Below, one piece after another: positions 4,824 to 39,947 of a stretch of 64,000 bases of DNA. The notes beneath the pieces are model-generated. The model searched no databases and was not told where the DNA came from. It saw nothing but the letters and a program-made list of their open reading frames with translations. Position 1 is the first letter of the stretch, and every line of letters starts with the position of its first letter. The position numbers and the translations under genes were made by a program. The DNA is from an uncultured delta proteobacterium (lineage in GTDB: Bacteria; Desulfobacterota; Binatia; UTPRO1), in assembly GCA_963797545.1 (NCBI GenBank), contig CAWCPU010000005.1, positions 254,108 to 318,107 of the forward strand, in the 5' to 3' direction.

Positions 4824-5089
4824 TACGGAGGTGCTCGGCGCGTACGGTCCCGCGGCTCGACGATCCGAGCCTCGCCCTCGCACGTCGGCCGAGCGGCGGA
4901 TCGCCGCAGGATCGCGACGACAGTCGCCTTTGCCGCTCACGTCGCGTCTGGTACCGTTGATGCTTCACCGCGGAGGCCGGAGCACGCGGCGACACGCGCG
5001 CTCGTTTCCGCCGAGCGGGCGCGGCGCCGCGTGCTCCGGCCGCGCCGCGGCGTGACGGCGACCGGATCACACGACGCACGGAAGGATCG

Positions 5090-6543
<1,454 letters not shown>

Positions 6544-6612
6544 GGCGCCGGCGATGAGCGCAGCCGCGGACGCCTGCGGCGCGGACGAGCGCGCTGCCGC
6601 CGAGCGTCCGCG

Positions 6613-7976: not shown

Positions 7977-7992
7977 GGACCGGCGCCGCGCC

Positions 7993-20227: not shown

Positions 20228-20374
20228 GAACTCCTCCTCTTTCGAGATACGATGGTGGACTCTCACCGCCGGGAACGATGAGAGACGGCACGCCTGAATG
20301 CCCGACAGCGGTTCCGGCGTCCGGGCCCGACGCGAGATGCGAACCCGCGGAGGAGCCGAAATGCCGTGGCGCCG

Positions 20375-20404
20375 ACGCTAATGACGACTGCCGGGCGCTG
20401 TCAA
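20375..20404 (-). promoter_or_regulatory. Putative sigma70 promoter of the metallohydrolase gene
   Basis: Minus strand TTGACA-N18-TAGCGT; palindrome ACCGTACGGT at 20416-20425 just upstream. Confidence 0.45.
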
Positions 20405-20515
20405 GCAAAATCGCAACCGTACGGTAACCTTGGCGCGGCGCGACCGGCAGGCGACGGCGGCGAGCGCCGGCATCGGGCCTTGACAGACGAAGGGCCGGCG
20501 GACGAGCTTCCGGCG

Positions 20516-21481
20516 ATGGACGCGACGCCGGTAGCACCCGTGGACTCGGCGACCGTGATCGTGCTGCGGCGGCGGCGTGGCGGCGAGTGTGAGGTCCTCC
20601 TCGTCGAGCGCCATGCGCAAAGCCGTGCGTTCGCCGGAGCGTCGGTCTTCCCGGGCGGCGTCCTCGACCCCGCGGACGCGGCGCCGAGCGTGCAGTCGGC
20701 CTCCCGAAACGTGACGCCGTCCGCGGCAGCCGCGCGCCTCGGCGAAGATGTCCCGCCGACGGCGGCGCTGGCGTTCTGGATCGCCGCCGTACGCGAGCTC
20801 TTCGAGGAAACCGGGGTCCTCCTGGCGGAGGCCGGCGGCACGTCGGCCGCCGCGAGCACGGTTGCGGTCCGTGAGCGGATGCGGCAGCGCCGGGCCGCGC
20901 TGCTCTCCGGAGCGCTCACGTTCGCCGACCTCGTCGCCGAGGAGCAGCTCGTGATCGCAACCGATCGATTGCGATACTTCTGCCGATGGATCACCCCGGT
21001 CGCCGCGCCGCGCCGGTACGACGCACGCTTCTTCGTCGCCGAGCTCTCCGACGGCCAGGAGCCGCTTCACGACGAGCGCGAAACGATCGCCACCGTGTGG
21101 ATCAGCCCCGCCGACGCCATCGCCCGGGCCGAAGCCGGCACCATGGTCCTCGCGCCGCCGACGCTCCGCACGCTCGAGGAGCTTCGCGACCTCGGCACCG
21201 TCGACGCGATCCTCGCGGCGGCCGACCGCCGTCGGGTCACGCCGATTCTCCCGAAAGTGACGACGATCGACGGCGCTCCCGCCATCCTCTACCCCGCGGA
21301 CTCAGAATACGAATCGATCGATGCGAGCGACGCCTCGACACGCTGGAGGAGCGCGAGCAAGGATCCCGCGATCTATCCGCGGTCGACATCGCCACCAGAC
21401 GACCCGACGAGCGCCCCCCGCGACCGAGTCCTCCTGCAAAACGGCGTCTGGCGAAGCGTCCGCACTCGTGGAACGCGGTGA
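20516..21481 (+). CDS. NUDIX hydrolase (NUDT19-like)
   Basis: DSATVIVLR, VFPGGVLD, AAVRELFEETGVLL, RWITP...RRYDARFF, PPT. Confidence 0.9.
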   Translation: MDATPVAPVDSATVIVLRRRRGGECEVLLVERHAQSRAFAGASVFPGGVLDPADAAPSVQSASRNVTPSAAAARLGEDVPPTAALAFWIAAVRELFEETGVLLAEAGGTSAAASTVAVRERMRQRRAALLSGALTFADLVAEEQLVIATDRLRYFCRWITPVAAPRRYDARFFVAELSDGQEPLHDERETIATVWISPADAIARAEAGTMVLAPPTLRTLEELRDLGTVDAILAAADRRRVTPILPKVTTIDGAPAILYPADSEYESIDASDASTRWRSASKDPAIYPRSTSPPDDPTSAPRDRVLLQNGVWRSVRTRGTR

Positions 21482-21541
21482 GGGGGAGAGGTTTGTGAGG
21501 GTGTTGGCTTCCGCCCTCACAAACCTCTCCCCCTCACCGCG
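21474..21541. repeat. Perfect 28-bp inverted repeat (REP-like or bidirectional terminator)
   Basis: cgcggtgagggggagaggtttgtgaggg, 12-nt loop, ccctcacaaacctctccccctcaccgcg; lies between convergent genes. Confidence 0.85.
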
Positions 21542-21565
21542 AGCATGCGTCCAGACACGCCTGCC

Positions 21566-22600
21566 TCATCCGCCGCTCCGCGCGACCTCCCGCCCGAGCG
21601 CGATCCGCTCGGCGACCGACAGCTTCGCGACGTCCGCCGCCGCGACCGCGTCCATCAGCGGCCGCAGACCCCGGCGGTTCGCCACTTGAATCGTGAGTCC
21701 CGGGCGCCCGTTCAGCTCGAGAACGAGCGGTCCGCGCTCGGCATCGATCACCACGTCGACGCCGAGATATCCGAGCGGGACGGCGCCGTAGCACTCCGCC
21801 GCGAGCTCCACGACGCGGTCCCAGTCCGGGACCCGCACGCCCACGACCGGGCGGCCGAGATCCGGGTGCGTCGCCGTCGGACGCCCGCGCATCGTCCCGT
21901 ACGAGGTGACGCCGGTCACGAGATCGACGCCGACGGCCATCCCGCCCATGTGCAGGTTGGCGCGGCCGTCGGAGAGCCGGGTCGGCAAGCGCAGCATCGC
22001 CTGCACCGGGACGCCGCGAAAGACGAGGACGCGAACGTCCGGCACGCCGCGGAAGCTGATCGCGCCGAGCACCGGATCGTGGCGCACCCGGGACTCGATC
22101 AGCACGTCGTCACCGTGCGGCGTCAGCGAGAACGCGCCGGCGAGGATGTCGGCGCAATGGCTCTCGAGATCGGCGAGCGAGATCTCGCTGCCGCTCGCCT
22201 TGACGAATCGAGACCCGCGCCGGCCGGCGATCACTTGCACGCCGCCGCCGCCGGACCCGCGGGCCGGCTTGACGACGAACTCCTCGCGCCCCCGCACGAG
22301 CTCGCCGAGGCGGCGAAGATCCCAGGGCACCTCGAGCTCGGCGAAGGTCTCCGGGACGGGAATGCCGCGTGCCGCGAGCGTGCGCTTCGTGGTGGGCTTG
22401 TGGTCGACGACGGCGAACAGCTGCGGCGGATTGTAGGGCACGAGGAACACCAGGTTGCGCCGGTTCATCCCGACGGCGTCGCGACCGACGGTCCGCAGGT
22501 CGTCGACGACGTCGCGCGCGCGCTTCGCCACCCGCGTGAGCCAGCCCTCGCGCCGCACGCCGCCGTGCGCGGCCGAGCCGGCGATCGGCTGCTCCGGCAT
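21566..22600 (-). CDS. Alpha-L-glutamate ligase-like ATP-grasp protein (RimK-related)
   Basis: GMNRRN, VDHK, FVVKPARGSGGGG, GVPDVRV, MLRLPTRLSDGRANLHMGG, LGYLGVD, LELNGRPGLTIQVAN; ATG overlaps the upstream stop (TGATG). Confidence 0.9.
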   Translation of the reverse strand: MPEQPIAGSAAHGGVRREGWLTRVAKRARDVVDDLRTVGRDAVGMNRRNLVFLVPYNPPQLFAVVDHKPTTKRTLAARGIPVPETFAELEVPWDLRRLGELVRGREEFVVKPARGSGGGGVQVIAGRRGSRFVKASGSEISLADLESHCADILAGAFSLTPHGDDVLIESRVRHDPVLGAISFRGVPDVRVLVFRGVPVQAMLRLPTRLSDGRANLHMGGMAVGVDLVTGVTSYGTMRGRPTATHPDLGRPVVGVRVPDWDRVVELAAECYGAVPLGYLGVDVVIDAERGPLVLELNGRPGLTIQVANRRGLRPLMDAVAAADVAKLSVAERIALGREVARSGG

Positions 22601-24957
22601 CACTGCTGGGTGAGCCGGGCACGGCGAGCGAGATCGTAGAAGCGCGCGTACTCGAGCAGGCGGAGACCGCGCCACTTGCCGATCAACACCTCGAGCACGA
22701 TCACGCCGATGAGGATCTCGGGATACGAGAGGATGATCGACTGCACGCCGCCGCGCTCGATGATCAGGTAGCAGGCGCTGCACACCACGAGCGTGTTGAT
22801 CGTCAGGCGAAGCGCCTGCCGCGTTCCCGCCTCGACTTGCGTCGTCGTGAAGTTCTCGATGACGTTCGACATGATGACCATCGGGAAGATGCTGACGTTC
22901 AGCAGCGCGCCGATGCCGAGATACGCGCCGACGACGGTCAGGCCCGCCATCATCGCGGAAACGAGCGCGATCAGGATCGCGAGCCGCGCGACGAGCTGGA
23001 TGCGGATCCATTGCAGCGCGGCGCGCGAGACGACGCCGAGCCCGACGATGACGCAGAAGATCACCACCCCCCACGCCAGTCCCGTCATCAAGAACGCCAG
23101 CGACACGATGACGGGCGCGAAGGTGCCGAAGGTCTCGACCCCGACCAGGTTGCGGAACATCACGACGATGCACGCGATCACCGGCAGGACCAGGATCAGG
23201 TTGATCGCTTGGAGCGGCACCTGCGCGATCACCGCCTCGGACCAGGCCGCGACCAGCGATCGCCGCCAGCGCGCGAGGTGGTGAACCTCCTCCTCGCCGA
23301 TCACCAGCGGCCGGATGTCCCACAGCGCCGCCGCCTCGACCATCGGCACGCCGTCGAGGAGATTGGCGCGGGCGATCGTCCACAAGGTGAGGAGCGGCGC
23401 TTTCGGATTCACCAGCACGAGCTCGCCCGGGTCGATCAGCGTGTAGAGCACCGAGCCGAGCACCCGGCCGACCGCGCGCGGGAAGCCGCCGGCGATCACG
23501 ATGCGCGCGTCGCGCAACGCGATCCCCTGCTCGCCGAGCTGGAGCAGCGCGTACAGTCCGGCTTCGTCGTCGGTCGACACCAGCAGCAGGTGAGACTCGG
23601 CGACGGCGTCGAAGTTGTTCGCGATCAGGCGCTGGAGGTAGTTCTCGCGAAAGTAGCGGGATTCGAAGCGGGCGCTCAGGAAGACGACGCTGATCGATCG
23701 CTGGCGCGCGTCGTCGACGATCTGATCGATGACGCCGTCCGCAATGAGATGGTCGCTGATCAGCACGACCGACGCGACCGGCCGCTCGGCGTAGAACGCG
23801 AACGTCCGGACGCGGTCGGTCTCGCGGCGGATCTCGCGGGCGCGCGCGCCCTCGCGCGTCGCGGTCCCGGTGTCCTGCTCGAGCAGCGATCGCCGCGTCA
23901 CCTGATGGATCAGGACGTCGTAGCGGAAGCCGATGTCCGCGGTGTGCTCGATCAGCGGCAGATCGCCGTAGTAGAGCGTCAGGTAGTTCGTCGGCACGTG
24001 GGCATAGTTGCCGTTCGCCGGGTCGAAGGGCACCCACGTGCCGCCGAGCCACGCCTCGACCCACGAGATCGTCGACCGCTTGCGCGCCGCGTCCTCCAGT
24101 CGGATGCCGCCGACGAAGCGCGCGGGTATGCCGACGCTGCGAAAGAGCGCGACCAGCAAACGCGCCTTGCCCGCGCCGGTGCCACGCTCCGCGGCGAGCA
24201 CGCCGAGCGCGTCGCTCGGCGCGCTCTCGCTTTCCGAGCTGCGGAGGAACGACGCCGCGTACTGATAGAGCGACCACGCGATCTCGTCGACCCGCTCGGT
24301 GTCGCGGGTCAACGCGGCGGCGCGGCGCTTGAGCGCCGGGGCGTCGCTCTGGATCGCATCGCTCGCCGCGAGATACGGCGCGCCGTCTTCGAGGCGCGGG
24401 TTCTCCGCGAGCGCGACGCGCGGCACGTCGAACCAGAGATCGGCGGTCCGGGCGGTGAACGCATAGCTGATGTCGCCCTGGGTCGGGCGGACGGCGTTGG
24501 CATCCCAGTGGACGCGCAGGTTCGGCGCGCGCGCTTCCTCGCGGAACCGGAACGCGCTCGGGCGGATGGCGCGGCTCAAGATCGCTTGCCGTCCGTCGGA
24601 GACGGGCACGAGCATGCCGACGTGCACGGCGTCCGTCATCGGATCGACTTGCATCGAGACGGCGACGTTCCAGTACGTGATCGCCGGCTTCGCGTGCTGC
24701 GGCTTCGCCGGCTCGTCGGAAGGAGTCAAGACCGGCGTGTCGGCGCCGCGGCGCCCCGGGGCCTTCGGCGCCTCCATCAGCGGCGCGTCCTCGGCGTCGA
24801 GATCGGTGCGGCGGCCCTGCGGGCGACGATCGCCGCCGATGCCGCGCTGGGCGCCGGGACCGGTCGCCTGGGTGCCGGGCGCGTCGCCGCGCGCCGCCGA
24901 CGCGCCGAGCACCGCGACGACGACCACGACCAGGGTGCAGTGCCGGACGGCGAGCAT
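22600..24957 (-). CDS. Inactive transglutaminase domain fused to 7TM domain
   Basis: KARLLVALFRSVGIPARFVGG, WVEAW, VPFDP; C-terminal FRNLVGVETFGTFAPV, RLAIL, IFPMVIMS, GKWRGLRLLEYARF; alternative GTG start at 25089. Confidence 0.85.
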   Translation of the reverse strand: MLAVRHCTLVVVVVAVLGASAARGDAPGTQATGPGAQRGIGGDRRPQGRRTDLDAEDAPLMEAPKAPGRRGADTPVLTPSDEPAKPQHAKPAITYWNVAVSMQVDPMTDAVHVGMLVPVSDGRQAILSRAIRPSAFRFREEARAPNLRVHWDANAVRPTQGDISYAFTARTADLWFDVPRVALAENPRLEDGAPYLAASDAIQSDAPALKRRAAALTRDTERVDEIAWSLYQYAASFLRSSESESAPSDALGVLAAERGTGAGKARLLVALFRSVGIPARFVGGIRLEDAARKRSTISWVEAWLGGTWVPFDPANGNYAHVPTNYLTLYYGDLPLIEHTADIGFRYDVLIHQVTRRSLLEQDTGTATREGARAREIRRETDRVRTFAFYAERPVASVVLISDHLIADGVIDQIVDDARQRSISVVFLSARFESRYFRENYLQRLIANNFDAVAESHLLLVSTDDEAGLYALLQLGEQGIALRDARIVIAGGFPRAVGRVLGSVLYTLIDPGELVLVNPKAPLLTLWTIARANLLDGVPMVEAAALWDIRPLVIGEEEVHHLARWRRSLVAAWSEAVIAQVPLQAINLILVLPVIACIVVMFRNLVGVETFGTFAPVIVSLAFLMTGLAWGVVIFCVIVGLGVVSRAALQWIRIQLVARLAILIALVSAMMAGLTVVGAYLGIGALLNVSIFPMVIMSNVIENFTTTQVEAGTRQALRLTINTLVVCSACYLIIERGGVQSIILSYPEILIGVIVLEVLIGKWRGLRLLEYARFYDLARRARLTQQ

Positions 24958-25085
24958 CAGCGCACGTCGAGGATGCCATGCGCCGGCGAGGATGCCTACC
25001 TCGGAGCCGACCGCGCCGGGTCGCGCGCGGGGACGCGCGACCGCGACGGCGCGGCAACCGCGGGAGCCCGGCACCGCGACGGCGC

Positions 25086-26252
25086 TCACCGTGCCGACGC
25101 GAGGACGTCGGCGAGCACGCGCTCGGGCGCGAAGTGCTCGCACGCGAGCGCCCGCGCCGCGGCGCAGTGGCGCGCGTAGTCGCCGGCGAGGGCGCGCACC
25201 GCGTTCGCCGCGTCGGCGAGGTCGCGGAACGCGAACAGACCGTCGCCGACCGGCAGCCGCCGTCCGAAACCGGTGTCTTGATTCACCGCCGGCCGTCCGG
25301 CGGCGAGGTAACAGGCGCTGCGGTCGCTGAACCAGCCGCTCGCGAGCCGCACGTTGACGTCCTTGGCGACCGTGAACTCGCCCTTCGACTCGCGGATGAA
25401 CGCGCGGTACGCCTCGGGATCGCTCGAGACGGCGAGCGGATCGACGATCTCCCAGCCGGCGTCCTCGAGCCGTCGCCGGTCGTCCGGGTAGCCGGCGACG
25501 TCCATCGCGATCCGAAAACGCTCGCCGGTGACGCGCGGCAGCTCGAGGAAGCGCAGCCACTCGGTCCGCTTGCGCCAGCCGAAGACCTCGCCGGCGAAGG
25601 CGACGTCGCGCCCGGCGCTGTCCCATTTGCCGATCGTCGTATACGCGGCGCCGGCAACCGGCGGCAGCGGCTCCCAGGACGCGGCGTCGATCGGCTGCCG
25701 GAGCGGCCGCCAGCCGACGCCCGCGGTCGGGATGCGGCACGGCGGCGCGCCGATGTTCTCGCCGAGCGTGAAGTGCACGTCGTGCTCCTCCACCATCGCC
25801 CGCAACCGGGTGTCGCCCTCGACGAGGCGGAGCTGCGTATAGGCCGGGTCGAGGTCGACGTACGCGGTCCGCGCGCGGGGGAACCACGCGCGCGGCAGCA
25901 GGTTCACGCCGCCGAGATTGACGACGAGGTCGGCGTCGGTGAGCGCGGCGCGAGCGGCATCGCGCGTGGCGCCGTGGAATCGATCGGCGGCCGCGTCCCA
26001 GAAGCACCACGCGCCGCCGAATCCGTGCCGATCGAGAAAGCTGCGCGCGAAGCCGACGCCGTGCTCGTACCCCGCGGTCACCATCGCCGGCGCGCCCGGC
26101 ACGTACGCGTCGGCGTAGTAGCTGGTGTCCTCGTAGAAGAACACCTCGCAGCCGAGCGCGCGGAATCCGAGGAGGAAGTGCAAGGCCTGCCAGGCGTAGC
26201 CGCCGAGCGGGAAGCGCACGAGGTAGCCGGCGACGACGACCCGCGGTCCCAC
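25086..26252 (-). CDS. Putative GT-B glycosyltransferase, paralog 1
   Basis: FPLGGYAWQALHFLLG...YED; DLDP; TLGENIG; SKGEFTVAKD...SGWFSDRSACYLAAGRPAVNQDTGF. Confidence 0.75.
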   Translation of the reverse strand: MGPRVVVAGYLVRFPLGGYAWQALHFLLGFRALGCEVFFYEDTSYYADAYVPGAPAMVTAGYEHGVGFARSFLDRHGFGGAWCFWDAAADRFHGATRDAARAALTDADLVVNLGGVNLLPRAWFPRARTAYVDLDPAYTQLRLVEGDTRLRAMVEEHDVHFTLGENIGAPPCRIPTAGVGWRPLRQPIDAASWEPLPPVAGAAYTTIGKWDSAGRDVAFAGEVFGWRKRTEWLRFLELPRVTGERFRIAMDVAGYPDDRRRLEDAGWEIVDPLAVSSDPEAYRAFIRESKGEFTVAKDVNVRLASGWFSDRSACYLAAGRPAVNQDTGFGRRLPVGDGLFAFRDLADAANAVRALAGDYARHCAAARALACEHFAPERVLADVLASAR

Positions 26253-26253
26253 G

Positions 26254-27417
26254 TCACGCTCCCGCGTCGGCGACGAGGCGGCGGAGTATGCGCGCCGCAT
26301 CGAACGCGTCGGCGGCGAGCGCGCGCGCGCCGGCGCAGCGCCGCGCGTAGCCCTCCTCGACGGCGGCGAGCGCGGCCGCCGCCTGCTCGACGTCGGCGAA
26401 CGGCAGGATCGCCTCGCCGATCGGATAGTGCGGCGCGAGGCCGGTGTCCTGGACGACGACCGGACGGCCGGTCGCGAGGTACGACGCCGATCGCGTGCTG
26501 AACCACCCGCTGCGCGGCGCGACGTACGCCTCCTTGGCGACGCTCAGCTCGCCGCGCGAGCCGGCGATGTACTCGCGGTAGGTCTCGAGCGTCGCCGACG
26601 CCGTGCGCGCGTCGATGATCCGCCAGCCCGACGCGCGCAGCGCGGCGATCGGCGCCGCGCCGGCGAGCGCCACCTCGAGCGTCGCGCGCGTCCGCGCCGG
26701 CAGGCCGAGGATCTTCGCGAACTCCACGTCCTTCGCGCCGTAGCACCGGCCGCCGAAGACGGGCGGCGTGACGTCGGTCTTCCAGGACATGACCGTCGTG
26801 AACGCGCCGCCCGCGGGCGGCGCGCACGGCGGCCAGTCGGCGAGCACGATCGGGTGACGCGTCGGATGCCAGACGAGACCGGCGGTGGGAATCGCGCACT
26901 CCGGGCGCCCGATGTTCTCGGCGAAGGAGAAGAACACGTCGTGGCGCCGGATCATCGCCGCCGAGTACGCGACGTGCTCGTCGGCGGTACCGGCGTCGGC
27001 GGCGACGAGCTTCGCCTGGCTGTAGCACGGGTCGGTGTCGACGTAGGCGGCGACGCCGCGACCGCGGTACTCGTCGCGGAGCCAGCACGCGCCCGAGACG
27101 TTCACCAAGAGGTCCGCGTCGCGACAGCAGACGCGCAACGCCGTCTCGTCCATCCCGTGGAGGCGCCCGTGCGGATCGCGAAACGCCCAGGGGACGCGCC
27201 GATCGCCCCGGTGCAGCACGCCCGCGAGGTGCGCGACGTTGGCGCGCGCGTCGTCGCTGTAGGTCTCCGCGGCGGGGTCGTACACCCACTGGCCGGTGTC
27301 CTCGAGGTAGGTCACGTCGGCGCCGAGGTCCGCGAAGCCGTGGACGTACTGCAGGTAGTCCCAGGCGACGCCGGCGACGGGATACGTCGCGATGAGCCCG
27401 GTCACGATCACGCGCAT
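26254..27417 (-). CDS. Putative GT-B glycosyltransferase, paralog 2
   Basis: YPVAGVAWDYLQY...LED; DTDP; SFAENIG; SRGELSVAKE...SGWFSTRSASYLATGRPVVVQDTG. Confidence 0.75.
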   Translation of the reverse strand: MRVIVTGLIATYPVAGVAWDYLQYVHGFADLGADVTYLEDTGQWVYDPAAETYSDDARANVAHLAGVLHRGDRRVPWAFRDPHGRLHGMDETALRVCCRDADLLVNVSGACWLRDEYRGRGVAAYVDTDPCYSQAKLVAADAGTADEHVAYSAAMIRRHDVFFSFAENIGRPECAIPTAGLVWHPTRHPIVLADWPPCAPPAGGAFTTVMSWKTDVTPPVFGGRCYGAKDVEFAKILGLPARTRATLEVALAGAAPIAALRASGWRIIDARTASATLETYREYIAGSRGELSVAKEAYVAPRSGWFSTRSASYLATGRPVVVQDTGLAPHYPIGEAILPFADVEQAAAALAAVEEGYARRCAGARALAADAFDAARILRRLVADAGA

Positions 27418-27546
27418 GCGCCTGCGTTCTCTATCGGCTCCCACGCCGCGGGTCACGCGGCACCGGGCGCCGTCCTCGCCGTCTTGACGTCCCGACCATG
27501 CGGTGCGTAGTCACGACGCCGAGACGCCGATCGTCTCGCCAAGGCA

Positions 27547-28125
27547 ATGGATCCGAAGCCGAGCTCGCCGCCGCACGTCTCGCGGCCAGCACCGTCGGTC
27601 GCGAATCGCCGCGCCGCGAAGCGCGCGCGGCCGATCGTCTGGCGGTTCGTCGTCTTCTATCCCCTCTCCGTCCTCGCCGTCGCCGGCTTGCTCGCGACGG
27701 ACTTCGTCGCCGAGCGGGTCGACGTTCCGGTCAACGTCCTCACCGCCCGCGCCGCGGCGGCGCTGTTGAACGCGATCGGCTTCGCCACCGTGCCGCACGG
27801 GATCAATCTCACGCACCTCGGGCAGACCGTCGCGGTCAGGACCGGGTGCAGCGGCCTCGAGCTCCTCGGCGTCCTGGTACCGGCGATGCTGCTCTTCCCG
27901 GCGTCGGCGCGGGCGAAGGGCCTCGGCGTCGCGGCGGCGGTCGCGGTGCTGCTCCCGCTGAACGCGCTCCGCGTCGCGTCGCTCTGCCTGCTGCTCGCGG
28001 CGAGCGCCCCTGCGTTCGAGCTCGCGCATCTCTACTTCTGGCAGGCGGCGCTGATCGGCTGCCTGTTCGCGTTCTTCCTCGCGTGGGTGCGTACCGTCGC
28101 GTGGGCGAGACCCGCAAGCTCCTGA
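27547..28125 (+). CDS. Exosortase/archaeosortase family protein (short, XrtH-like)
   Basis: Multi-TM; catalytic triad motifs GCSG (Cys), LNALRV (Arg), AHLYFWQ (His). Confidence 0.82.
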   Translation: MDPKPSSPPHVSRPAPSVANRRAAKRARPIVWRFVVFYPLSVLAVAGLLATDFVAERVDVPVNVLTARAAAALLNAIGFATVPHGINLTHLGQTVAVRTGCSGLELLGVLVPAMLLFPASARAKGLGVAAAVAVLLPLNALRVASLCLLLAASAPAFELAHLYFWQAALIGCLFAFFLAWVRTVAWARPASS

Positions 28126-28752
28126 GCGGCGCCCTGGTCTTCGCGGGCGTCTACACGGCCGCTTTCCTACTCTGGACCGCGACCAACCTCGAGCAGCACC
28201 TCTGGCTCGAGCCGCTCGCGGCGGGCGCGCGGCTGCTCACCGCGATCGTCGAGCACCCGCCGGTGACGGCCGCGATCGTCACCGCGCCGGGATGGATCTG
28301 GGTCACGACGGTCTCGCTCGGTGGGAGTCGAGCTGCATCACTTCGGGCTCGTCGGCGCGACCTTCACGAGCGCGGTGCCGATCCTGCTCGCGCTCGTCGC
28401 CGTCGCGCCGGGCATCGCGCGCCGCGACCGCCTCCGGCTCCTCGGCGTCGCCCTCGCCGGGCTGCTGGTGTTGAACGTCGCCGCCGTCACCTGTCTCATC
28501 GAGGCGACGTACCTCCGCATCCCCGACATGGCGGCGAGCGACCTCCTGCGGACGCAGCGCGCGCTCGCGCCGCTCTATCGCGCCGCCGAGAAGGCGCTCG
28601 GGAGCTACATGGCCGAGCTCGGCATGCTCGCGGTGGTCTTCGGCGCCGGCTTCCTCGCGACCGGCGCCGGCAGCGCCGCGGGCGCCCCCGGGCGGAACGA
28701 CCCGTGCCCGTGCGGCAGCGGCGCGAAGTTCAAGCGCTGCTGCGCGCGCTGA
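28101..28752 (+). CDS. Membrane protein with C-terminal SEC-C Zn-binding motif (frameshift near 28320)
   Basis: Hydrophobic segments in two frames (LVFAGVYTAAFLLW; VPILLALVAVAPG); ends PGRNDPCPCGSGAKFKRCC. Confidence 0.7.
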
Positions 28753-28836
28753 CGCCGCGGCCGGTCCGCGCCTCACGACCGCGCGAGCGCCGACCGGACG
28801 CGACGGCGGGCGCCGTGAGACATCGGAGCCGGTCGC

Positions 28837-30051
28837 TCACGCGAAGGCCGCGTCGAGCATCCGGCCGAGCACGCGCTCGGCCGCGAAGTACTCCGCCGCG
28901 AGCTCGCGCGCGGCCGCGGCGTGCGCGCCGTACGCGTCGGCGACGTTCCGCACCGCGGCCACGGCCGCCGCGCAGTCGTCGAATCCGACCACCCCGAGGC
29001 CGCTCGGGACGACGGCGCTGAACCCGGTCTCCTGCGTGACGACCGGCTTGCCGGCCGCGAGGAAGCAGGCGCTGCGGTCGCTGAACCACCCGCTCCGCGG
29101 CCGCACGTAGATGTCCTTCGCGACCGTGAACTCGCCGCGCGCGCCGCGGATGAAATCGCGGTACGCGTCGAGGTCGGCGGAGAGCGGCCGCGGATCGACG
29201 AGCTGCCAGCCGCGGGCCGCGAGATCGGCGCGGATCGCCGCGTCGATCGGGTCCATCGCGAGCTCGAACCGCACGCCCGCGAGCCGCGGCACGTCGAGGA
29301 CCGAGAGGAAGTTGCGGTGCTTCGACCACCGATAGGTCTCGCCGCGGAACTCGACGTCCTTCCCCTTGTTCTCCCAGGTCGCGATCGTGCGAAAGCAGCG
29401 CGCGACGTCCTCCACGGCGCCGGCACGGCGGCTCGCCGCCCCGGCGCCCTGGGCCGCCCCGCTCCACCAGTCGAGGACGACCGGCGGCCGCGTCGGCACC
29501 CAGCGGAAGCGTTCGATCGGCACGCGGCACCGCGGCGTGCCGAGCAGCTCGCCGTAGGTGAAGAGCACGTCGTGCGCCGCGAGGAACGCGATGCTGTCGG
29601 CGTCGCCGTTCGCGACCCGCATCTGCTCGTAGACCGGATCGGTCTCGACGTAGCACAGCCGCGCGCCGCGCTTGTGCTCGTCGCGCGGCCGCGTCGCGCC
29701 GCAGACGTTGAAGACGACCTCGGCCGATCCGTAGAGGCCGTCGACCCGCGCCTTCGTCATGCCGTACCAGTCGCCGGTGAGCGCGTCCCAATACGCCCAG
29801 CGATCCGCGAAATCGATCCGGCGCATCGCCGCCGCGAGCGCGGCGACGTTCGCCCGCGCGTCGGTCGCGATGCTGTCGTGACGCGCGTCGTAGGGCGGCG
29901 CGCCGGAGTCCTCGACGTAGTACACGTCGCAGCCGAGCGCGCGCAGGCCCGCCACGTAGTGGAGCGCCTGCCAGACGACGCCGGCGAGCGGGTACTGCCC
30001 GGCGATGCCGAGGACGACGACGCGCGGGCCGCGGCGCGACGCGGAGCCCAT
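28837..30051 (-). CDS. Putative GT-B glycosyltransferase, paralog 3
   Basis: YPLAGVVWQALHY...VEDS; ETDP; TYGE; ARGEFTVAKD...SGWFSDRSACFLAAGKPVVTQETGF. Confidence 0.75.
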   Translation of the reverse strand: MGSASRRGPRVVVLGIAGQYPLAGVVWQALHYVAGLRALGCDVYYVEDSGAPPYDARHDSIATDARANVAALAAAMRRIDFADRWAYWDALTGDWYGMTKARVDGLYGSAEVVFNVCGATRPRDEHKRGARLCYVETDPVYEQMRVANGDADSIAFLAAHDVLFTYGELLGTPRCRVPIERFRWVPTRPPVVLDWWSGAAQGAGAASRRAGAVEDVARCFRTIATWENKGKDVEFRGETYRWSKHRNFLSVLDVPRLAGVRFELAMDPIDAAIRADLAARGWQLVDPRPLSADLDAYRDFIRGARGEFTVAKDIYVRPRSGWFSDRSACFLAAGKPVVTQETGFSAVVPSGLGVVGFDDCAAAVAAVRNVADAYGAHAAAARELAAEYFAAERVLGRMLDAAFA

Positions 30052-30091
30052 CGCGCTAGCCGCTCTCGCCGGGTCGCGGAGCCGTCATCGC

Positions 30092-31880
30092 CTAGCCGAT
30101 CGCGCCGCGCTTGGCGCGGACGCCGAACTGCGCCTCGTGGAGCCGGGCGAACGCGCCGCCGCGCGCGACGAGCTCGTCGAACGTGCCGCTCTCGGCGACG
30201 ACGCCCTCGCGGAGCACGACGATCCGATCCGCGTGGCGCACGGTCGACAGGCGGTGCGCGATCACGAACGTCGTGCGCCCGCGCATCAGCTCGTGGAGCG
30301 CGGCGATGACGAGCGACTCGGTCTCGGCGTCGAGCGCCGAGGTCGGCTCGTCGAGGATCAGGATCGGCGCGTCGCGCAGGATGGCGCGGGCGATCGTCAA
30401 GCGCTGGCGCTCGCCGTCCGACAGGGTCGCGCCTTGCTCGCCGACCGGCGTCTCGAGACCGAGCGGCAGGCGCGCCAGCAGCCCGTCGAGCTGCGCCAGG
30501 CGCGCCGCCCGCGCGACGTCGGCGTCCGCCGCGAACGGGCTGCCGTAGGCGACGTTCTCGCGGAACGTCGTCGGAAAGACCAGCGACGGCTGCAGCACCA
30601 TGCCGATCCGGCTCCGCAGCTCGCGCAGGCGAAACTCGCGGACGTCGACGCCGTCGAGCAGCACCCTGCCGGCGGTGGGATCGAAGAAGCGCGCGACCAG
30701 GCTCACCAGCGTCGTCTTGCCGGCGCCGGTCGCGCCGACGATCGCCGTCACCTCGCCGGCGCGCGCGGTCACGTCGACGTCGCGGAGGACGGGACGGCCG
30801 GCGACGTACTCGAACGCGACGTGCTCGAACCGCACCTCGCCGCGGAGCCTCGCCGGATCGAGCGTGCGATGCCCTTCCGCCAGGTCGGGCGTGGTCTCGA
30901 GAATCTCGAGGACCCGGCGGGCACCGGCACGGGCGCCCTGCACCATCCCGATGGTCTGGCTGATGCTGTTGATCGGCGCGTACAGCGACGCGAGGTAGCT
31001 GGTGAAGACGAGGATCTGCCCGATCGTGAGCGCGCCCGCGAGCACGTGCGTCGCGCCGACCCAGAGCACGAGCGCGGTGCCGAGCGCGACGATCACGTTG
31101 ATGCCGCTCGCGTACACCGTCTGGAGGACGTACAGGCGCCAGTTCGCCTGCAGGCTCTCGGTGCTCGAGGCGAGAAAACGGCTGCTCTCCTCGTCCTCGG
31201 TGGTGAACGCCTGGATGACGCGGATCGCGGCGATGCCGCGCTGGGTGACCGAGTAGAGCCGGCTCTCCTTCTCACGCGCATCCGTCGCGACCGCGGTGAT
31301 TCGCCGGCCCATCAGCGAGATCGCGACGAAGATCACCGGGCAGACCGCGAGCGCGACCAGCGTCAGGACGGCGTCGATCCGCAGCATGATCGCCATCATC
31401 CCGGCGAACAGCGCGACCGAGGTCATGATCGGAAAGACGCCGTTCATGCTGAGCGTCTGGATCGCGAAGGTGTCGGCGGTGACGCGGTAGAGCAGATCGC
31501 CGACCTCGCGGCCGCCGTGGAAGCGCAGCGACAGGCGCTGCAGGTGCTGGTACAGGTCGCGGCGAAAGTCGTTCACCATCCCCTGGCCGACCCTGATCGT
31601 GGTGGCGTTGTGGAGGACGCTGAGGAGCGCCAGCACGCCGTAGAGCGCGACCAGGCCCGCGCACGCGACCAGCAAGAGCGCGCGCGGCGAGCGGCCGGCG
31701 AGCGGTCCGGCGCGTCATCGGCGCGCCGCCGAGGACGTTGTCGACGACGATCTTCAGCGGCCACGGCTTCAACAGCTCGCCGGCGCTGATCAGGATCACC
31801 TGCACGACCGCGAAGGCGAACGCCACCCGGTACGGCCGGAGGTAGTGCGCGATCGTGCGCGCCAGCGGGAACGCGCTCAT
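30092..31880 (-). CDS. ABC exporter, fused TMD-NBD (MsbA/NdvA-like; frameshift near 31700)
   Basis: LLKPWPLKIVVDNVLG; HLQRLSL; Walker A GATGAGKTT; LSDGERQRL; ILDEPTSALD; IAHRLST. Confidence 0.92.
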
Positions 31881-31902
31881 GCGTCTCGCCGGGTCGGGCG
31901 CC

Positions 31903-34444
31903 TCAAACGCGCGACTCGACGGCGACCAGGCCGAGCTGCTGCGAGACGATCTCGAGCACCTGGTAGATCACGCGTCCCAGCCGGAAGCTCTGGTAGGCGA
32001 TCGACACCGCGGTGAGGCCGCCGAGAACCGCCGCGACGATCGCGAGCTCGGAGATGCCGGCGTAGGCGCCGACCGCCACCAGCAAGCCCCAGGAGCCGAG
32101 CGCGAGCTTCGCCGCACGCGAGGTCTTGACGGCGCAGCGCACGTTGAAGAGCCGCCGTCCGCCGCCGTGGTTCTCGACCGCGACCCGGAGCTGCCCCTTC
32201 GCCACCACGCCGCCATGGACCTCGAGGTCCCAGCTGCTCCAGCCGAGGTCGTGGGCGATGAGATACTTCCGCGGCAGCAGGAACCGCATCACCGACCTCG
32301 AGGAGGGCCTCCTTCTCGTCGCCGCCGTCGCTCCAGTACGCGAGCAGGAAATCGCGCCGCAGCCACCGGACGCGGGCCCGCTGCGTCGGCTCGGCGAAGC
32401 GGATGCGCTCGACGTCGTTGAGTCCCTTGATCCGCCAGCGGTAGCGCTCGTAGCTGCGCACGAGCGGGCCGAGGTAGATCAGGACCGCGACCAGCAAGCG
32501 TCCGCGCCAATCGTCGTAGCGCGGCTCGATCCGGGCGCGCATCGCGCTCGACAGCGACGAGACCAGGGTGATCGCGAGCGGCACGAGCGCGAGCGCGAGG
32601 TGCTTGCCGGCCGCGAGCGCCGCGATGACGATCAGCGCGCCGACGAGATTCCACTCGAGCGTGAACGGCAGATGCTCGAACAGCGACGACGGCGGCTCGT
32701 AGAGCGTTTGAAAGAGGCCGCGGCCGAAGGTGCCGGAGTAGATCGCCGGTCGGCGCGAGAACAGCGAGGTCGTGAAGTCGCCGTAGATGCGGCCGAGCCA
32801 GCGCGACTGGCCGAGCATGTTGAAGCGGTACGGATGCTTGAAGTAGAGCAGCGCCTCGGCCTTCCCGTAGCCGCGCTGCTGGCGGAGATAGTCGCGGACG
32901 GTGTTGCGGCGGAAGTGCCAGACCATCGCCCCCGGGCTGAAGCCGATCGCGTAGCCGCGATTCTGCAGGCGCCAGCACACGTCGACGTCGTCGCCCGCGG
33001 CCGCGAAGATCGGCTCGAAGCCGTGTACCTCCTCGAGGGCGCGCTTGGTGAAGGCCATGTTGCAGCCGGGAATGTGCTCGGCGACCTCGTCGTCGAGGAG
33101 GACGTGCGTCGGTCCGCCGGGCGCCGCCGCGACGTAGGCGGCGACCGCGCTGTCCTCCGGCGGCGGGAAGTTCGGCCCGCCGACGGCGACGAAGCCGTTC
33201 TCGACGAACTTGTAGACGAGGTACGTCAGCCAGTCCGGATCGACGACGCAATCGGAGTCCGTGTAGGCGACGATCTCGCCGCTCGCGGCGCGCATCCCGA
33301 CGTTGCGCGCCACCGACAGCCCGCGGTTCTCCTGGTTGATCAAGCGGAACGCCGGGTAGCGCTCGGCGATCGCGCGCGTGCGATCCTTCGACCCGTCGTT
33401 GACGATCACGACCTCGTAGTTCGGGTAGCGGAGCTTCTCGAGCGAATCGAGGCATGCCGCGATCGTGCGCTCGGCGTCGAAGGCGCAGATCACGACGGAG
33501 ACCTTCGGGTAGCGGCCGAGCGGCGGCGGCAGCGGCCCCGCGAACTGCGCTTGCACGGCGCGGAAGGCCGGCTTCCGCTTGCGGTCGCGCGTCACCAGGC
33601 CGAACGACCAGTCCTCGACCTGCGAGCCGCCGGTGAACCAGTCGTCGGTCCACGAGAAGACGCAGGTGCCGGCGACGCCCGACTCGAAGCCGGCACGCAC
33701 CTGCCACGCCAGGATCTCCGCCTGCGTCGCCTCGCCGAGCCGTCTCGAGTCGATGCCGTGCTCGGTGATGACGAGCGGCCGGTCTCCCGCGATGTTCTGG
33801 AGCCGCAGCAGATAGCGCCGGAAATCGCGTTCGTGGTGGAGGTAGACGTTGAAGCTGACGAAATCGACGTCGTCGACGTCGAGGTACTCGGTCGGCGGGA
33901 AGTTCGCGTAGGTGACGAGCGCGGTCGGCTCGATCGTCTTCACCTCGTCCCGCAGCGTGCCGAGGAAGCGTTCGATCTTCTTGGGTCCGTACCAGCGGAC
34001 GATGTCCGGAGGGATCTCGTTGCCGATCGCGTAGGCGAAGACCGCCGCGTGGCCGGCGCACTGACGCACGGCGCGGCGAACGGCCTCACGAATCTCGGCG
34101 ACGAGCTTCGGGGAATCGAGGAAACAGACGTGCTCCGCCCAGGGGATTCCCACGAGGACGCGGAGATCGAACGCCTCGGCGCGGTCGAGCAACCACCGCG
34201 GCGGCGCCGTGAAGGTGCGGAGCGTGTTCGCGCCCAGCTCGCGCATGAGGGCGAAGTCGCGTTCCACCATCTCCCGCTCCGGGAATTGATCGCCGTGCGA
34301 CGCTTGCGCGAACGGACCGTAGGAGACCGCGCGCACGTAGAATTTCCGATCGCCCGCCCAGAAGAATTTTCCTCGGACGTCGACCGGCCCGGGATCGGCG
34401 GCGGTCGCGAGCGAGACCGAGCGAGCGGCGGGGCTGGCCGTCAT
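31903..34444 (-). CDS. GH-A clan TIM-barrel domain fused to GT2 glycosyltransferase and C-terminal TM region (frameshift near 32290)
   Basis: N-terminal ANTLRTF, AIGNEIP, SFNVYLH, ITEHG, FSWTDDW; GT2 SVVICAF, VNDGS, ARNVG, YTDSD, GCNMAF, AGDDVD, QQRGYG. Confidence 0.88.
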
Positions 34445-34722
34445 GCGAGCGTCGGGCGTTCCAGGGCGTGGCCCGTTCCACCGCCGAGGCGTCGCGAGCG
34501 ATCGTCACTCGACGCGATCAGATCAGTCGCGCAGGCGCGCATGCCGTGCCGGGTTTTGTATCTCCTCGCACGGCGTTTGGACAGTACGACGGCGGCGCCG
34601 AACGCGCGCGCTCACGACGTCGTCGCCCGGCGGTTCCCACGCCACGGCCTCGCGCAGCCTACCCCGGTGCCGACGCGCAGAACCCGAGACCGCGGGCAGA
34701 AGTGCGGGCGGCGTGCGCCCGC

Positions 34723-35364
34723 TCAGGGCTCGTCGGCGTGGCCGCGGAAGCGCTGGCCGCCGTTTTCCGCCACGCCCGACCCGTAGCGTCCTTCGAAGCA
34801 CTCGCCGCTCGCGGCCTGCAGCTGCACGCGCAGCGGCACCGTCACCGGCAGATCGGGCAGGTGAAGCTGCCGGCCGCGACCCTTCAGGACGATGCGACCG
34901 CGGCCGCCGCGCCGCGCGTCGAGGTAGACCTTGGTGAGACCGTTCGGCAGGCCGGTGCCGGTCCGGTACCGGAAGCCGGTTCCGGTCTGCCGCCAGTAGC
35001 TCGCGGCGGGCGCGGTCGCGGCGAAGAGCAACGAGGTCTCGCCGCCGCTCCCCTCACCGTAGAGACAGAACGCGTAGTCGCTCGTCGTCGTCGGATCCGC
35101 GAACGCGAGAGCCTGCGCCGAGGCGCCGCGGTACCACTTCCAGACCACGTTGTCGCGGCGGTGCGACGCTCGCGTGTTCATCCAGAGGCGCGTCGGATGC
35201 GGAGGCGTCGGCGTGATGCAGCCCGTGATCGGCGCCGGCGCGCAGGTGAAGTCGGCGGCGAACGACGCCGCAACGACGAAGGCGCTGATCGTTATCGTGG
35301 CTGCGAGCGACGCGCATACCCGCGCGATGCGCCGAGCGCGGCCGGATCCGACTGGATCGTGCAT
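34723..35364 (-). CDS. Hypothetical exported protein
   Basis: GGAGG RBS; signal-like N-terminus; VVWKW...FADPTTTSDYAFCLY...VQLQAASGECF beta-rich domain. Confidence 0.65.
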   Translation of the reverse strand: MHDPVGSGRARRIARVCASLAATITISAFVVAASFAADFTCAPAPITGCITPTPPHPTRLWMNTRASHRRDNVVWKWYRGASAQALAFADPTTTSDYAFCLYGEGSGGETSLLFAATAPAASYWRQTGTGFRYRTGTGLPNGLTKVYLDARRGGRGRIVLKGRGRQLHLPDLPVTVPLRVQLQAASGECFEGRYGSGVAENGGQRFRGHADEP

Positions 35365-35614
35365 GAGCCTCCACCTTTCACGAGACGTGGTTGTCACAGT
35401 ATCGAACGGGCACCGCGGCTGAAGATTGGCGGTGAGTGCCTATCCGGAGCCGGTCGGCTTGTCCAGCGATTTTTCACTCGACCTGCCGGAGTCGTCTTCC
35501 TGGACACGGCTGACTCGGGTGCGCTGCCCGCGACCAGGCGATCGCGGTCGCGCGACGATCGAGAAGGTCGGCGCGCCGCTCGTCGCGACCTCGCATCGTC
35601 TCGTCGTTCGGTGA

Positions 35615-35688
35615 TGCTGGTGGAGGGACTCGAACCCCCACTTGGCTGATTTTAAGTCAGCTGCCTCTGCCGCTTGGGCTACACCAGC
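35615..35688 (-). tRNA. tRNA-Leu(TAA) with short variable region
   Basis: GCTGGTG/CACCAGC acceptor, GCTGA-CT TAA AA-TCAGC anticodon arm, variable CAAGT, GGGGG-TTCGAGT-CCCTC, A73; CCA not encoded. Confidence 0.9.
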
Positions 35689-35698
35689 CGAGTGTGAG

Positions 35699-35771
35699 AG
35701 GCGGCGAGCGGATTCGAACCGCTGCATCGAGGTTTTGCAGACCTCTCCCTTAACCACTTGGGTACGCCGCC
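35699..35771 (-). tRNA. tRNA-Cys(GCA)
   Basis: GGCGGCG acceptor, GAGGT-CT GCA AA-ACCTC, GGTTCGAATCC, U73. Confidence 0.96.
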
Positions 35772-35861
35772 CGGAAGCGGCGTTCGTACCACAGGGCCGA
35801 ACGAAGCGGCAACCAAGCGTGCGTCGCGCGAGGAGGCGGCCGATCGTCGGAGGGTCGGGTC

Positions 35862-35937
35862 GCGGCGGCGGCGTGACGTCCTCCTCCGCGCGACGGAAGC
35901 CGACGTCGCGCGGAGGAGGACGTCACGCCGCCGCCGC
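35862..35937. repeat. Perfect 34-bp inverted repeat
   Basis: gcggcggcggcgtgacgtcctcctccgcgcgacg, 8-nt loop gaagccga, exact reverse complement. Confidence 0.85.
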
Positions 35938-36180
35938 TGCTCGATCGGCGCGCGCATCGGCGTCATCCCGCGAGCCACGTAGCGGACGCCATCGGCAGTG
36001 AGCGCTCCGAAGACCGCGGTCGAGCGGTGCAGCGGCGCCGCTCGATGCGTGGGCGCGACCGATCGATCGGTTCGTCAGACACGGGACGCATCGGGATCGT
36101 GCGCATGCAAGGAGGTGCCGCGGATCTCGACGGGTGATTCGCGTTGCTTGGGTGACACGAAGTTCCTAGAATCGGCGATC

Positions 36181-36952: not shown

Positions 36953-37019
36953 CGAGCTCGGCGGCCAAGGACCGCCGACGGCCGCCGTTCGGCCCCACCC
37001 TCGTTCGAAGGAGTCGACG

Positions 37020-39835: not shown

Positions 39836-39947
39836 TCACCGCGCGTCCGCGCCGCACGTCGGTCGGCGCGCCCGTCCTCCGCCGCGCAAGCCGCGCCGCC
39901 GCGCCGCTCGACGCGCTCGCCGACGTCCACCGGAGCGCGCGCGGCGG

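Follow-up and report, generated by a model that had tools for sequence, protein, structure and literature searches.

Cyclic beta-1,2-glucan is made by the synthase Cgs, in which a glycosyltransferase (GT) of family GT84 is combined with a glycoside hydrolase (GH) family GH94 domain, and is exported by the ATP-binding cassette (ABC) protein ChvA/NdvA, the logic of the pair being a cytoplasmic synthase with a fused glycan-processing domain and export by an ABC half-transporter. NdvB, which synthesises cyclic beta-1,3-glucan in pseudomonads and Bradyrhizobium, unites a clan GH-A barrel, a GT2 domain and membrane helices in one polypeptide; the protein has a signal peptide, its periplasmic GH domain is of family GH17, and a membrane region stands between GH and GT2. 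The NdvB product is tied to osmoregulation in the accessible text of one source (PMC10237404). GH157 is described as a family of endo-beta-1,3-glucanases (PMC10229575, PMC10637969), and the characterised members named in the accessible part of the former source are cell-surface or secreted degradative enzymes (PMC10229575). Quite another kind of envelope system is the rlo operon of Pseudomonas aeruginosa, encoding a secreted retropepsin (RloA), an inactive transglutaminase with seven transmembrane helices (7TM; RloB) and an ATP-grasp protein (RloC); as far as the available portion of the preprint goes, the lethality that a triple protease mutant suffers under hypo-osmotic conditions is relieved when rloB or rloC is lost, and it is only for P. 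aeruginosa that a role in tolerating hypo-osmotic conditions, in cell shape and in biofilm formation is reported (bioRxiv 10.1101/2025.03.18.643919). Here we analyse a stretch of 64,000 nucleotides (hereafter the window) from an uncultured soil bacterium, a delta proteobacterium of the class Binatia (contig CAWCPU010000005.1, positions 254,108 to 318,107), in which seven minus-strand genes between 21566 and 34444 recall both kinds of system. The genes for a fusion of GH157-like and GT2 domains (GH-GT2), an ABC exporter and three paralogous proteins of GT-B fold (GTB1, GTB2 and GTB3 for paralogs 1, 2 and 3) are referred to as module 1; those for a transglutaminase-7TM protein and an ATP-grasp ligase as module 2. 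On balance it is probable that two separable modules stand side by side here, the first combining glycan assembly on the cytoplasmic side with an export unit and the second being a pair of the RloB/RloC type; module 1 is a real, conserved and so far uncharacterised glycan assembly and export unit.

Recurrence of module 1 was followed in a sample of 80 loci anchored on the GT-B family, taken with 10 kb flanks and mapped with the window proteins (loci are cited below by L numbers). The core is present in 34 of them: GH-GT2, ABC and GT-B genes follow one another in this order in 29, two are devoid of the ABC gene and three are cut at a contig end, the GT-B copies numbering one (16 loci), two (5), three (12) or four (1). 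Labels of the records bearing the core include Binatia, Methylomirabilota, Rokubacteria, Aliidongia and Thermodesulfobacteriota. In the other 46 loci, mostly from Stellaceae-type bins, the GT-B gene is followed by a PMT_2 enzyme of the GT-C type, a methyltransferase and a GT2 gene, with DegT-type aminotransferase and epimerase genes on the flanks, which is an envelope-glycan context too. A scan of 15 long GT-B homologs for fused partners revealed ABC exporter domains in five (P0132, P0134, P0142, P0145 and P0148), GT2 domains in nine, ordinary GT4/GT1 domains in four, a methyltransferase in two, and a sulfotransferase, TPR repeats and a tandem GT-B in one each; fusion to an ATP-grasp or transglutaminase domain was found in none of the 15. 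Those which join ABC with GT-B, or ABC with GT-B and GT2, constitute the strongest evidence for joint action of the core genes. The initial annotation of the window had read GH-GT2, ABC and GT-B genes as a unit of glycan synthesis and export, and this reading is borne out by the core shared among 34 loci, by the fusions found elsewhere and by the fold of the GT-B proteins. No characterised member and no description of the module 1 cluster was found in the library and literature searched, subscription journals not being covered.

In the GH-GT2 protein, Pfam recognises the GT2 domain at 1.9e-33 and Glyco_hydro_2_C at 3.6e-9, with no match to GH17. There is no signal peptide and no transmembrane (TM) segment between the GH and GT2 domains, TM-like segments occurring only after GT2. 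Compared with PDB sequences by phmmer, the window GH domain matches LaGH157 (9fz9) at 1.1e-12, the next PDB family being GH2 at 0.001; E143 of an NE motif and E228 of a TE motif align with the catalytic glutamates in the NE and TTE(224)FG motifs of LaGH157, the counterpart of E228 being E224, the residue mutated in the laminaritriose complex. These catalytic glutamates, as well as the GT2 motifs assigned by eye as DGS-D, DSDC, GDDVD and QQxGYGKAE, are invariant in 20 orthologs. An AlphaFold2 (AF2) model of the L009 ortholog, with a predicted local distance difference test score (pLDDT) of 77.9, is composed of a TIM (triosephosphate isomerase) barrel (residues 25-305), the GT2 domain (318-545), helices (595-684), a beta domain (698-781) and two terminal helices (783-843), and its top Foldseek match is again LaGH157 (2.3e-13). 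Among solved structures LaGH157 (PDB 9fz9, 9g4n) is nearest to the GH domain both by sequence and by fold. The domain is best described as a GH157-like TIM barrel of clan GH-A with both catalytic glutamates and a predicted activity only; in contrast to the characterised GH157 enzymes it forms part of a synthase and is placed on the cytoplasmic side. The strongest model match of the GT2 domain is MftF, a builder of an oligoglucose chain. NdvB likewise brings together a clan GH-A barrel, GT2 and membrane helices in one chain, and was considered and rejected as the identity of GH-GT2, the signal peptide, the domain of family GH17 as well as the TM segment between the domains all being missing: the GH157-like domain joins GT2 directly on the cytoplasmic side, and the fusion is accompanied by ABC exporter and GT-B genes.

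The three GT-B paralogs are 40-44% identical among themselves and have no further copy in the 6.24 Mb genome. They are matched above cut-off by none of the models in Pfam and NCBIfam, the GT4/GT1 models PF00534, PF13439 and PF13692 included, and the nearest one, PF13524, gives 24.4 bits vs a cut-off of 25 with paralog 2 only. The AF2 model of paralog 3 (pLDDT 90.2) has the GT-B fold and brings up by Foldseek the GT4 enzymes 7qsg, PimA, tll1591 and BshA (E 3e-9 to 1e-6, 9-14% identity); GT4 enzymes head the listed hits among 229 PDB matches at E<=0.001, the families of which were not tallied. With retaining GT4 enzymes (PimA, BshA, the methylmannose polysaccharide mannosyltransferase and tll1591) the family has in common the two-Rossmann GT-B fold, and it is set apart from them by this low identity, by the silence of the GT4 Pfam models and by invariant motifs of its own (GE[FL]TVAK and SGWFSDRS). 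A word-based search returned 4972 proteins at E<=0.001, and a profile run against 1.84 billion representatives returned 4969 at the same threshold, 3327 at E<=1e-10 and 1210 at E<=1e-30. In Protein Atlas the proteins of the locus fall into clusters named 'glycosyltransferase/hypothetical' and 7TM-transglutaminase.

The ABC protein carries a six-helix membrane domain (PF00664) and a nucleotide-binding domain (PF00005) in one polypeptide, and its orthologs are intact in L004 and in L021, where the protein spans positions 3-571 of the 572-position MsbA model. Judged by these intact orthologs, it appears to be a full MsbA-type half-transporter and is a predicted exporter. The best NCBIfam models are MsbA-like and all stay below cut-off (421 vs 602 bits and 428 vs 780), as do the glucan-exporter models NF010178 (366 vs 733 bits) and TIGR01192 (275 vs 585 bits) and the model of PglK.

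Turning to module 2, its ligase matches PF14397 (ATPgrasp_ST, in Pfam's wording 'Sugar-transfer associated ATP-grasp') at 1.5e-72 over positions 2-276 of 278, and TIGR02291 with 335 bits vs a cut-off of 314.2; by these two models it is of the RloC type, RloC's own place in them being taken from its description in the rlo paper. In the 7TM protein PF01841 is found at residues 216-313 and PF14402 at 575-776, with a hydrophobic N-terminal segment (1-19) and TM-like segments within 582-759. Both Pfam families, ATP-grasp and 7TM, reportedly go back to Iyer et al. 2009. Cysteines of the 7TM protein are located only at residues 7, 596, 635, 726 and 729, none falling in 8-595, and no histidine occurs in 151-319; since the transglutaminase region has neither residue, the domain cannot be catalytic. 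An active transglutaminase was accordingly rejected, and the inactivity proposed in the initial annotation holds. The RloB model NF052267 is matched by the 7TM part only (138 bits vs a cut-off of 900), and the whole protein has no phmmer match in the PDB. Of the nine loci bearing the 7TM gene, seven have the ligase gene directly beside it and two break off at a contig end; the pair is likewise adjacent in 12 of 12 further loci. As in rlo of P. aeruginosa, an ATP-grasp ligase is encoded beside a protein combining an inactive transglutaminase with seven TM helices, and the stop and start codons overlap; in contrast to rlo, the 7TM protein is 785 residues long vs 508 positions of the RloB model, with about 230 extra residues before the membrane part, and in this lineage the pair adjoins glycosyltransferase genes. 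The earlier view of the ligase/7TM pair as a recurring module is thereby sustained, both by the model matches and by the description of the rlo operon. A retropepsin of the RloA type (PF05618) gave no match in the genome, which is 68.6% complete, and no protease was present among the neighbours examined. Within such a module, the cytoplasmic ATP-grasp amidoligase would work with a membrane protein bearing a dead extracytoplasmic transglutaminase domain.

Whether the two modules belong together was judged from their distribution. Downstream sequence of 6 kb or more is available for 23 core loci. Of these, eight contain the 7TM gene, at a gap of 61-162 nt in five and of 2.4-5.8 kb in three; seven of the eight have Binatia-type labels (Candidatus Binatia or Deltaproteobacteria bin), L007 being labelled Polyangiaceae. 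L010, with a 7TM gap of 135 nt and less than 6 kb downstream, lies outside the 23. In the three loci with the larger gaps (L011, L012 and L016) antisense genes for a PIG-L deacetylase and an acyl-CoA dehydrogenase are situated between the modules, accompanied in L016 by a GT2 gene and a sulfatase gene. A survey of the class, based on a sample of 200 genomes in which the counts of kin are not independent, detected the long 7TM form in 53 genomes and the GT-B gene in 108. The 53 are divided into 16 with direct adjacency to GT-B (all from family f1), 10 with a distance of 1.4-9 kb (all from family f5), three with 222-311 kb on the same contig (G214, G222 and G169), 12 with the two on different contigs, four in which the GT-B positions are not listed and eight which have no GT-B gene. 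Conversely, the long 7TM form is missing from 63 of the 108 genomes with GT-B, and in family f81 GT-B is present in 19 of 25 genomes and the 7TM gene in none of the 25. Short RloB-like forms of other families never share a contig with a listed GT-B match. PF14402 is absent from four of the five core-bearing genomes labelled as other phyla or lineages, the fifth having one on another contig. The initial annotation had joined the two modules in a single pathway; beyond an adjacency specific to one lineage, in two families of the class, this does not find support, and the circumstance which that annotation itself had named as refuting it, rarity of the ligase/7TM pair beside the GT block in other genomes, is largely borne out. 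The direct contact of the modules, specific to the family of the window, would have come about when the antisense genes for deacetylase and acyl-CoA dehydrogenase, which stand between them in a related family, were lost.

In the window itself the spacer between the modules (24958-25085) folds into a hairpin with a minimum free energy of -81.5 kcal/mol (z-score -2.78), 1 of 200 shuffled sequences folding as well. Its core is a perfect 10-bp stem with no U-tract after it, and the sequence is not conserved among seven relatives (mean column identity 54%). A promoter and terminator scan of 21000-36500 gave no promoter-like sites and four terminator-like ones vs 4.5 expected, and is uninformative.

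Three genes of the locus change their reading frame within the window. For GH-GT2 the change is located at about 32293-32296: the stretch 34444-32297 corresponds to relatives in one frame, the stretch 32292-31909 in another. The gene is one open reading frame with a conserved terminal membrane segment in L004, L005, L007, L009, L010, L012 and L021; in the window this segment sits in the other frame, intact relatives end at a stop matching 31903-31905, and the open frame extending to 31877 is a wrong-frame tail. In the ABC gene the change falls at about 31706-31712, the first 60 or so residues (31889-31713) being in a different frame from the rest, and the open frame from 31675 misses the true N-terminus. 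The SEC-C gene of the antisense insert (described below) changes frame at about 28320-28329, its window copy matching in two frames the intact L004 ortholog of 225 residues (L004:4333-5010(-)). A scripted count of same-strand frame switches without a nearby stop codon gave 25 in the window (4.25 per 10 kb coding), 126 in the first 400 kb of contig C5 (3.64 per 10 kb coding) and 17 in 11 related loci (0.92 per 10 kb coding), 11 of these 17 coming from L017 and L023. The genome, with its 6.24 Mb in 15 contigs, is nevertheless only 68.6% complete. Since the assembly is rich in such switches, those interrupting GH-GT2, ABC and the SEC-C gene are very probably assembly errors. Dense runs of stop-less switches are also seen elsewhere in the window, at 4254-8320 and 38969-40538.

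Several observations count against the picture of a glucan-type assembly unit lying beside an independent module 2. In L073 and L081 GH-GT2 runs directly into the GT-B gene without an ABC gene between them; the exporter may there be encoded elsewhere or be dispensable. The GH domain is only 18-20% identical to LaGH157, and by structure GH2 beta-glucuronidase barrels come nearly equal to it (Foldseek E ~1e-12). By the same by-eye assignment, the GT2 domain has QQxGYG in place of the canonical QxxRW, the motifs of a processive GT2 domain of NdvB type being D, DxD, TED and Q(Q/R)xRW, and structurally it is matched best by GT2 enzymes of the non-processive or polyprenyl-phosphate kind. The labels of metagenome bins are unreliable, two of them reading Klebsiella and Nitrosotalea, so that the true phyletic breadth of the core is uncertain. 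The frameshifts rest on comparison of sequences, no sequencing run being listed for 31500-32500. As regards separability, the modules co-occur in 45 genomes of the class vs 29 expected if they were independent, a comparison confounded by kinship, and one acyl-CoA dehydrogenase ortholog (68-84% identical; paralogs at most 41%) flanks either the GT core or the 7TM pair. Its divergently oriented gene adjoins the 7TM-ligase pair in eight of 12 loci away from any GT-B, and these eight proteins are 68-78% identical to the copy standing beside the GT core in L011 (L011:9530-10732(-)); nine orthologs found by the GT core in loci without 7TM are 70-84% identical to the same copy, a tenth (L024) being at 42%. 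This fits an old order of GT core, PIG-L with acyl-CoA dehydrogenase, and 7TM-ligase, later partly lost or moved. Because the whole pattern lies within one lineage, it counts as roughly one evolutionary event. The ortholog does not occur at the window locus, the best matches in the same genome being 41% identical for the dehydrogenase and 43%, on another contig, for PIG-L. Loci with the dehydrogenase ortholog include L087-L094 and L014-L027, often with a PIG-L deacetylase gene as its pair.

By analogy, the logic of module 1 may be compared to that of Cgs with ChvA/NdvA: the GT2 domain would build a short chain of beta-glucan type, the fused GH domain would cut or transglycosylate it, the GT-B enzymes would add further sugars and the MsbA-type protein would move the product across the inner membrane. 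The constituents are other than in Cgs, a GT2 and a GH157-like domain standing in place of GT84 and GH94, and Cgs has no partner from the GT-B family. A beta-glucan-type oligosaccharide is the leading, although tentative, guess for the product. Its main competitor, which we regard as somewhat unlikely, is a membrane glycolipid or lipid-linked oligosaccharide: a lipid acceptor would receive sugar from the GT2-membrane protein, be lengthened at the membrane face by GT-B enzymes akin to PimA and be flipped to the outer leaflet by the MsbA-like protein. Such a route agrees with the two best ABC models being MsbA and its relative (421-428 bits) and with the match to PglK; with the resemblance of GT2 to Glyco_transf_21, HpnI and CruG, which act on lipids, and to structures of PcManGT, DPMS and GtrB type; with the place of PimA, an enzyme acting on phosphatidylinositol, among the top fold hits of GT-B; with the acyl-CoA dehydrogenase and PIG-L genes that neighbour the cluster in relatives; and with the ABC-GT-B fusions, which put the transferase at the membrane. 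All these model matches, however, remain below the family cut-offs, a fused and catalytically intact domain resembling an endo-glycanase is hard to explain for a short glycolipid, and the strongest GT2 model is that of the oligoglucose-chain builder MftF. It is quite improbable that neither product is made any longer in this organism, real mutations having shifted the frames of GH-GT2, ABC and the cassette gene in a decaying relic. Three frameshifts do occur within 4 kb of the cluster, opposite orthologs that are intact in independent assemblies, and that of GH-GT2 is outside any obvious homopolymer run; yet a similar density of switches pervades the window and 400 kb of the contig at about four times the rate in relatives, an unrelated gene for a luciferase-like protein is affected as well, the genome is incomplete in spite of so few contigs, and the coding-type bias in G+C content of third codon positions (GC3) runs unbroken through each shift. 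Assembly error stays the favoured source of the interruptions.

There is also the view in which all seven genes serve one pathway, the ligase adding glutamate or another amino acid to the glycan of module 1 and yielding an anionic periplasmic polymer; the amino acid could be joined to a uronic carboxylate, or to the amine which PIG-L, present in relatives, exposes on a glucosamine, and the 7TM protein would handle the product in the envelope. The bacillithiol and mycothiol pathways follow a comparable logic, with a GT4-like transferase, a PIG-L deacetylase and an ATP-dependent ligase, and BshA is among the structural hits of GT-B. Further points in its favour are the common strand and the short gaps in five loci (six with L010) and in 16 genomes of f1, the persistence of a 1.4-9 kb distance in 10 genomes of f5, the acyl-CoA dehydrogenase neighbour common to both modules across the class, and the very name of PF14397 with its reference to sugar transfer. 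Both the rlo operon and periplasmic glucans are moreover described, in the accessible portions of the respective sources, as bearing on hypo-osmotic tolerance (bioRxiv 10.1101/2025.03.18.643919; PMC10237404). We nevertheless consider this pathway improbable. Adjacency is restricted to two families of one class, in one of which (f5) antisense genes split the modules; hundreds of kilobases separate them in three genomes, GT-B is missing altogether from eight genomes that have the long 7TM form, and most genomes with GT-B have no long 7TM form; PF14402 is missing from four of five core-bearing genomes under other labels; not one of the 15 GT-B fusions involves ATP-grasp or transglutaminase; in the window, 128 nt containing a strong hairpin stand between them; and RloBC homologs in Proteobacteria are described, in the available part of the preprint, as forming a three-gene operon of their own (bioRxiv 10.1101/2025.03.18.643919). 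Two separable modules, brought into contact within one lineage, is therefore the arrangement we retain.

The layout on which these comparisons are based is given in Table 1. At a G+C content of about 71% open frames alone say little in the window, and for this reason the gene calls were based on GC at third positions, on a seven-state frame segmentation and on what relatives show. On the minus strand the order is GH-GT2, ABC exporter, GTB3, an antisense insert, GTB2 and GTB1, transglutaminase-7TM and ATP-grasp ligase. The seven genes on one strand, their junctions and the antisense exosortase insert, as listed in the initial annotation, were all recovered by direct reading of the sequence and by GC3 frame analysis, which backs their coding status. 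A gap of 22 nt separates the GH-GT2 stop (31905-31903) from the ABC ATG (31880), 40 nt lie between the ABC stop and the GTB3 start, and a single nucleotide between the GTB2 stop (26256-26254) and the GTG at 26252; this GTG is likely, on comparative grounds, to be the GTB1 start in preference to the ATG at 26300, and the GTB1 ortholog of L004 starts directly after the L004 GTB2 stop. The 7TM and ligase genes meet in a TGATG overlap at 22602-22598. A GTGA overlap had been suggested as possible at 25086-25089: an in-frame GTG is indeed present at 25089, over the GTB1 stop at 25088-25086, but the ATG at 24957 is the more likely start of the 7TM gene, leaving a gap of 128 nt, because a hydrophobic, signal-like N-terminus begins there. 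In the closest relative, L004, the 7TM start cannot overlap the GTB1 stop, since the frame is closed 30 nt past the stop.

Table 1. Features of the locus in the window (positions are those of the 64,000-nucleotide stretch)
Feature	Position	Strand	Basis and remarks
GH-GT2: GH157-like TIM barrel, GT2 domain and C-terminal membrane region	31903..34444	-	Pfam, phmmer, AF2/Foldseek; ~847 aa read through
ABC: MsbA-type half-transporter	30092..31880	-	PF00664 + PF00005; ~595 aa read through
GTB3: GT-B paralog 3 (GT4-like)	28837..30051	-	AF2 model and Foldseek; no Pfam above cut-off
Multi-pass membrane protein with C-terminal SEC-C motif	28077..28752	+	PF02810 at 6.9e-10
Small exosortase-family protein, nearest XrtH	27547..28125	+	TIGR04178 above cut-off
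GTB2: GT-B paralog 2	26254..27456	-	42% identical to paralog 3; ortholog at same position in related loci
GTB1: GT-B paralog 1	25086..26252 (alternative start ATG at 26300)	-	Paralog alignment, L004 ortholog, junction reading
Spacer between GTB1 and 7TM gene, G+C-rich hairpin	24958..25085	-	Folding vs shuffles
Long-form inactive transglutaminase with 7 TM helices (RloB-like), 785 aa	22600..24957	-	PF01841 + PF14402
ATP-grasp amidoligase, RloC-like, 'alpha-L-glutamate ligase-like', 344 aa	21566..22600	-	PF14397, TIGR02291

The antisense insert consists of an exosortase-family gene and the SEC-C gene. The exosortase exceeds the cut-off of TIGR04178 (38.3 bits vs 23), its score with the XrtH subtype model TIGR04177 (71.1 bits) being below the cut-off of 86. 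Among the 80 related loci the exosortase gene is present in L004 only, which belongs to the same genus as the window, and by this comparison the cassette appears to be a recent insert, confined to these two, which splits the GT block into two transcription units. At the same site between paralogs 3 and 2, inserts of 1.2-1.5 kb are carried by L007 (L007:11158-12658) and L008 (L008:2663-3854), and their open reading frames show no match to the cassette proteins or to Pfam; this position may be an insertion hot spot. Outside the window, the same genome holds a match to the IPTL-CTERM sorting signal (27.7 bits, above cut-off; C5:1230937-1231017 (-)), the protein bearing which is a possible candidate substrate for the XrtH-like exosortase, and a second exosortase-family match at C6:319619-319780.

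A plus-strand gene with a NUDIX domain (20366-21481) converges on the ligase, so that the minus-strand run ends at 21566. Beside it a protein of about 1250-1290 residues without Pfam match is encoded at 16505-20266 (-). Both neighbours keep their positions by the ligase in five loci (L004, L005, L007, L009 and L086), so that synteny within the family extends over the whole block. On the other side, a luciferase-like monooxygenase gene at 37005-38034 (+), unrelated to the cluster, changes frame at about 37183 in comparison with the intact orthologs of L007 and L010, this being one of the 25 stop-less switches counted in the window; in the window and in these two loci the gene is situated a few kb upstream of GH-GT2. 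Homologs 48-49% identical to the window copy occur on the opposite strand directly downstream of the lone GT-B gene in eight Stellaceae-type loci (L028, L038, L039, L053, L056, L059, L075 and L076).

For the organism under study it follows in the first place that the assembly holds many frame errors and that its gene models need comparison with relatives. The adjacency of the RloBC-type pair would matter only if the modules were coupled, which is unlikely at present, and in that case it would offer a testable hypothesis on substrate. Such coupling would take the form of an old super-locus of Binatia, in which the RloC-type ligase amidates an exported periplasmic oligosaccharide at a sugar amine freed by PIG-L or at a uronic carboxylate, and the RloB-type 7TM protein handles the product; we hold this to be very doubtful. 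If true, it would give the first concrete substrate lead for RloBC, a system connected in Pseudomonas with antibiotic tolerance and with biofilm formation, and would tie RloBC to osmoregulated periplasmic glycans. Of wider bearing is the GT4-like family itself, comprising about 5,000 clusters at 50% identity, reached by no current Pfam or NCBIfam cut-off and found in soil and sediment bacteria, most of them uncultured. Module 1 is a widespread gene set built around this unrecognised family of glycosyltransferases, and its predicted cytoplasmic fusion of GH157-like and GT2 domains with a dedicated ABC exporter, an architecture unlike the NdvB or Cgs/ChvA routes to cyclic and periplasmic beta-glucans, would amount to another means of producing and exporting a glycan.

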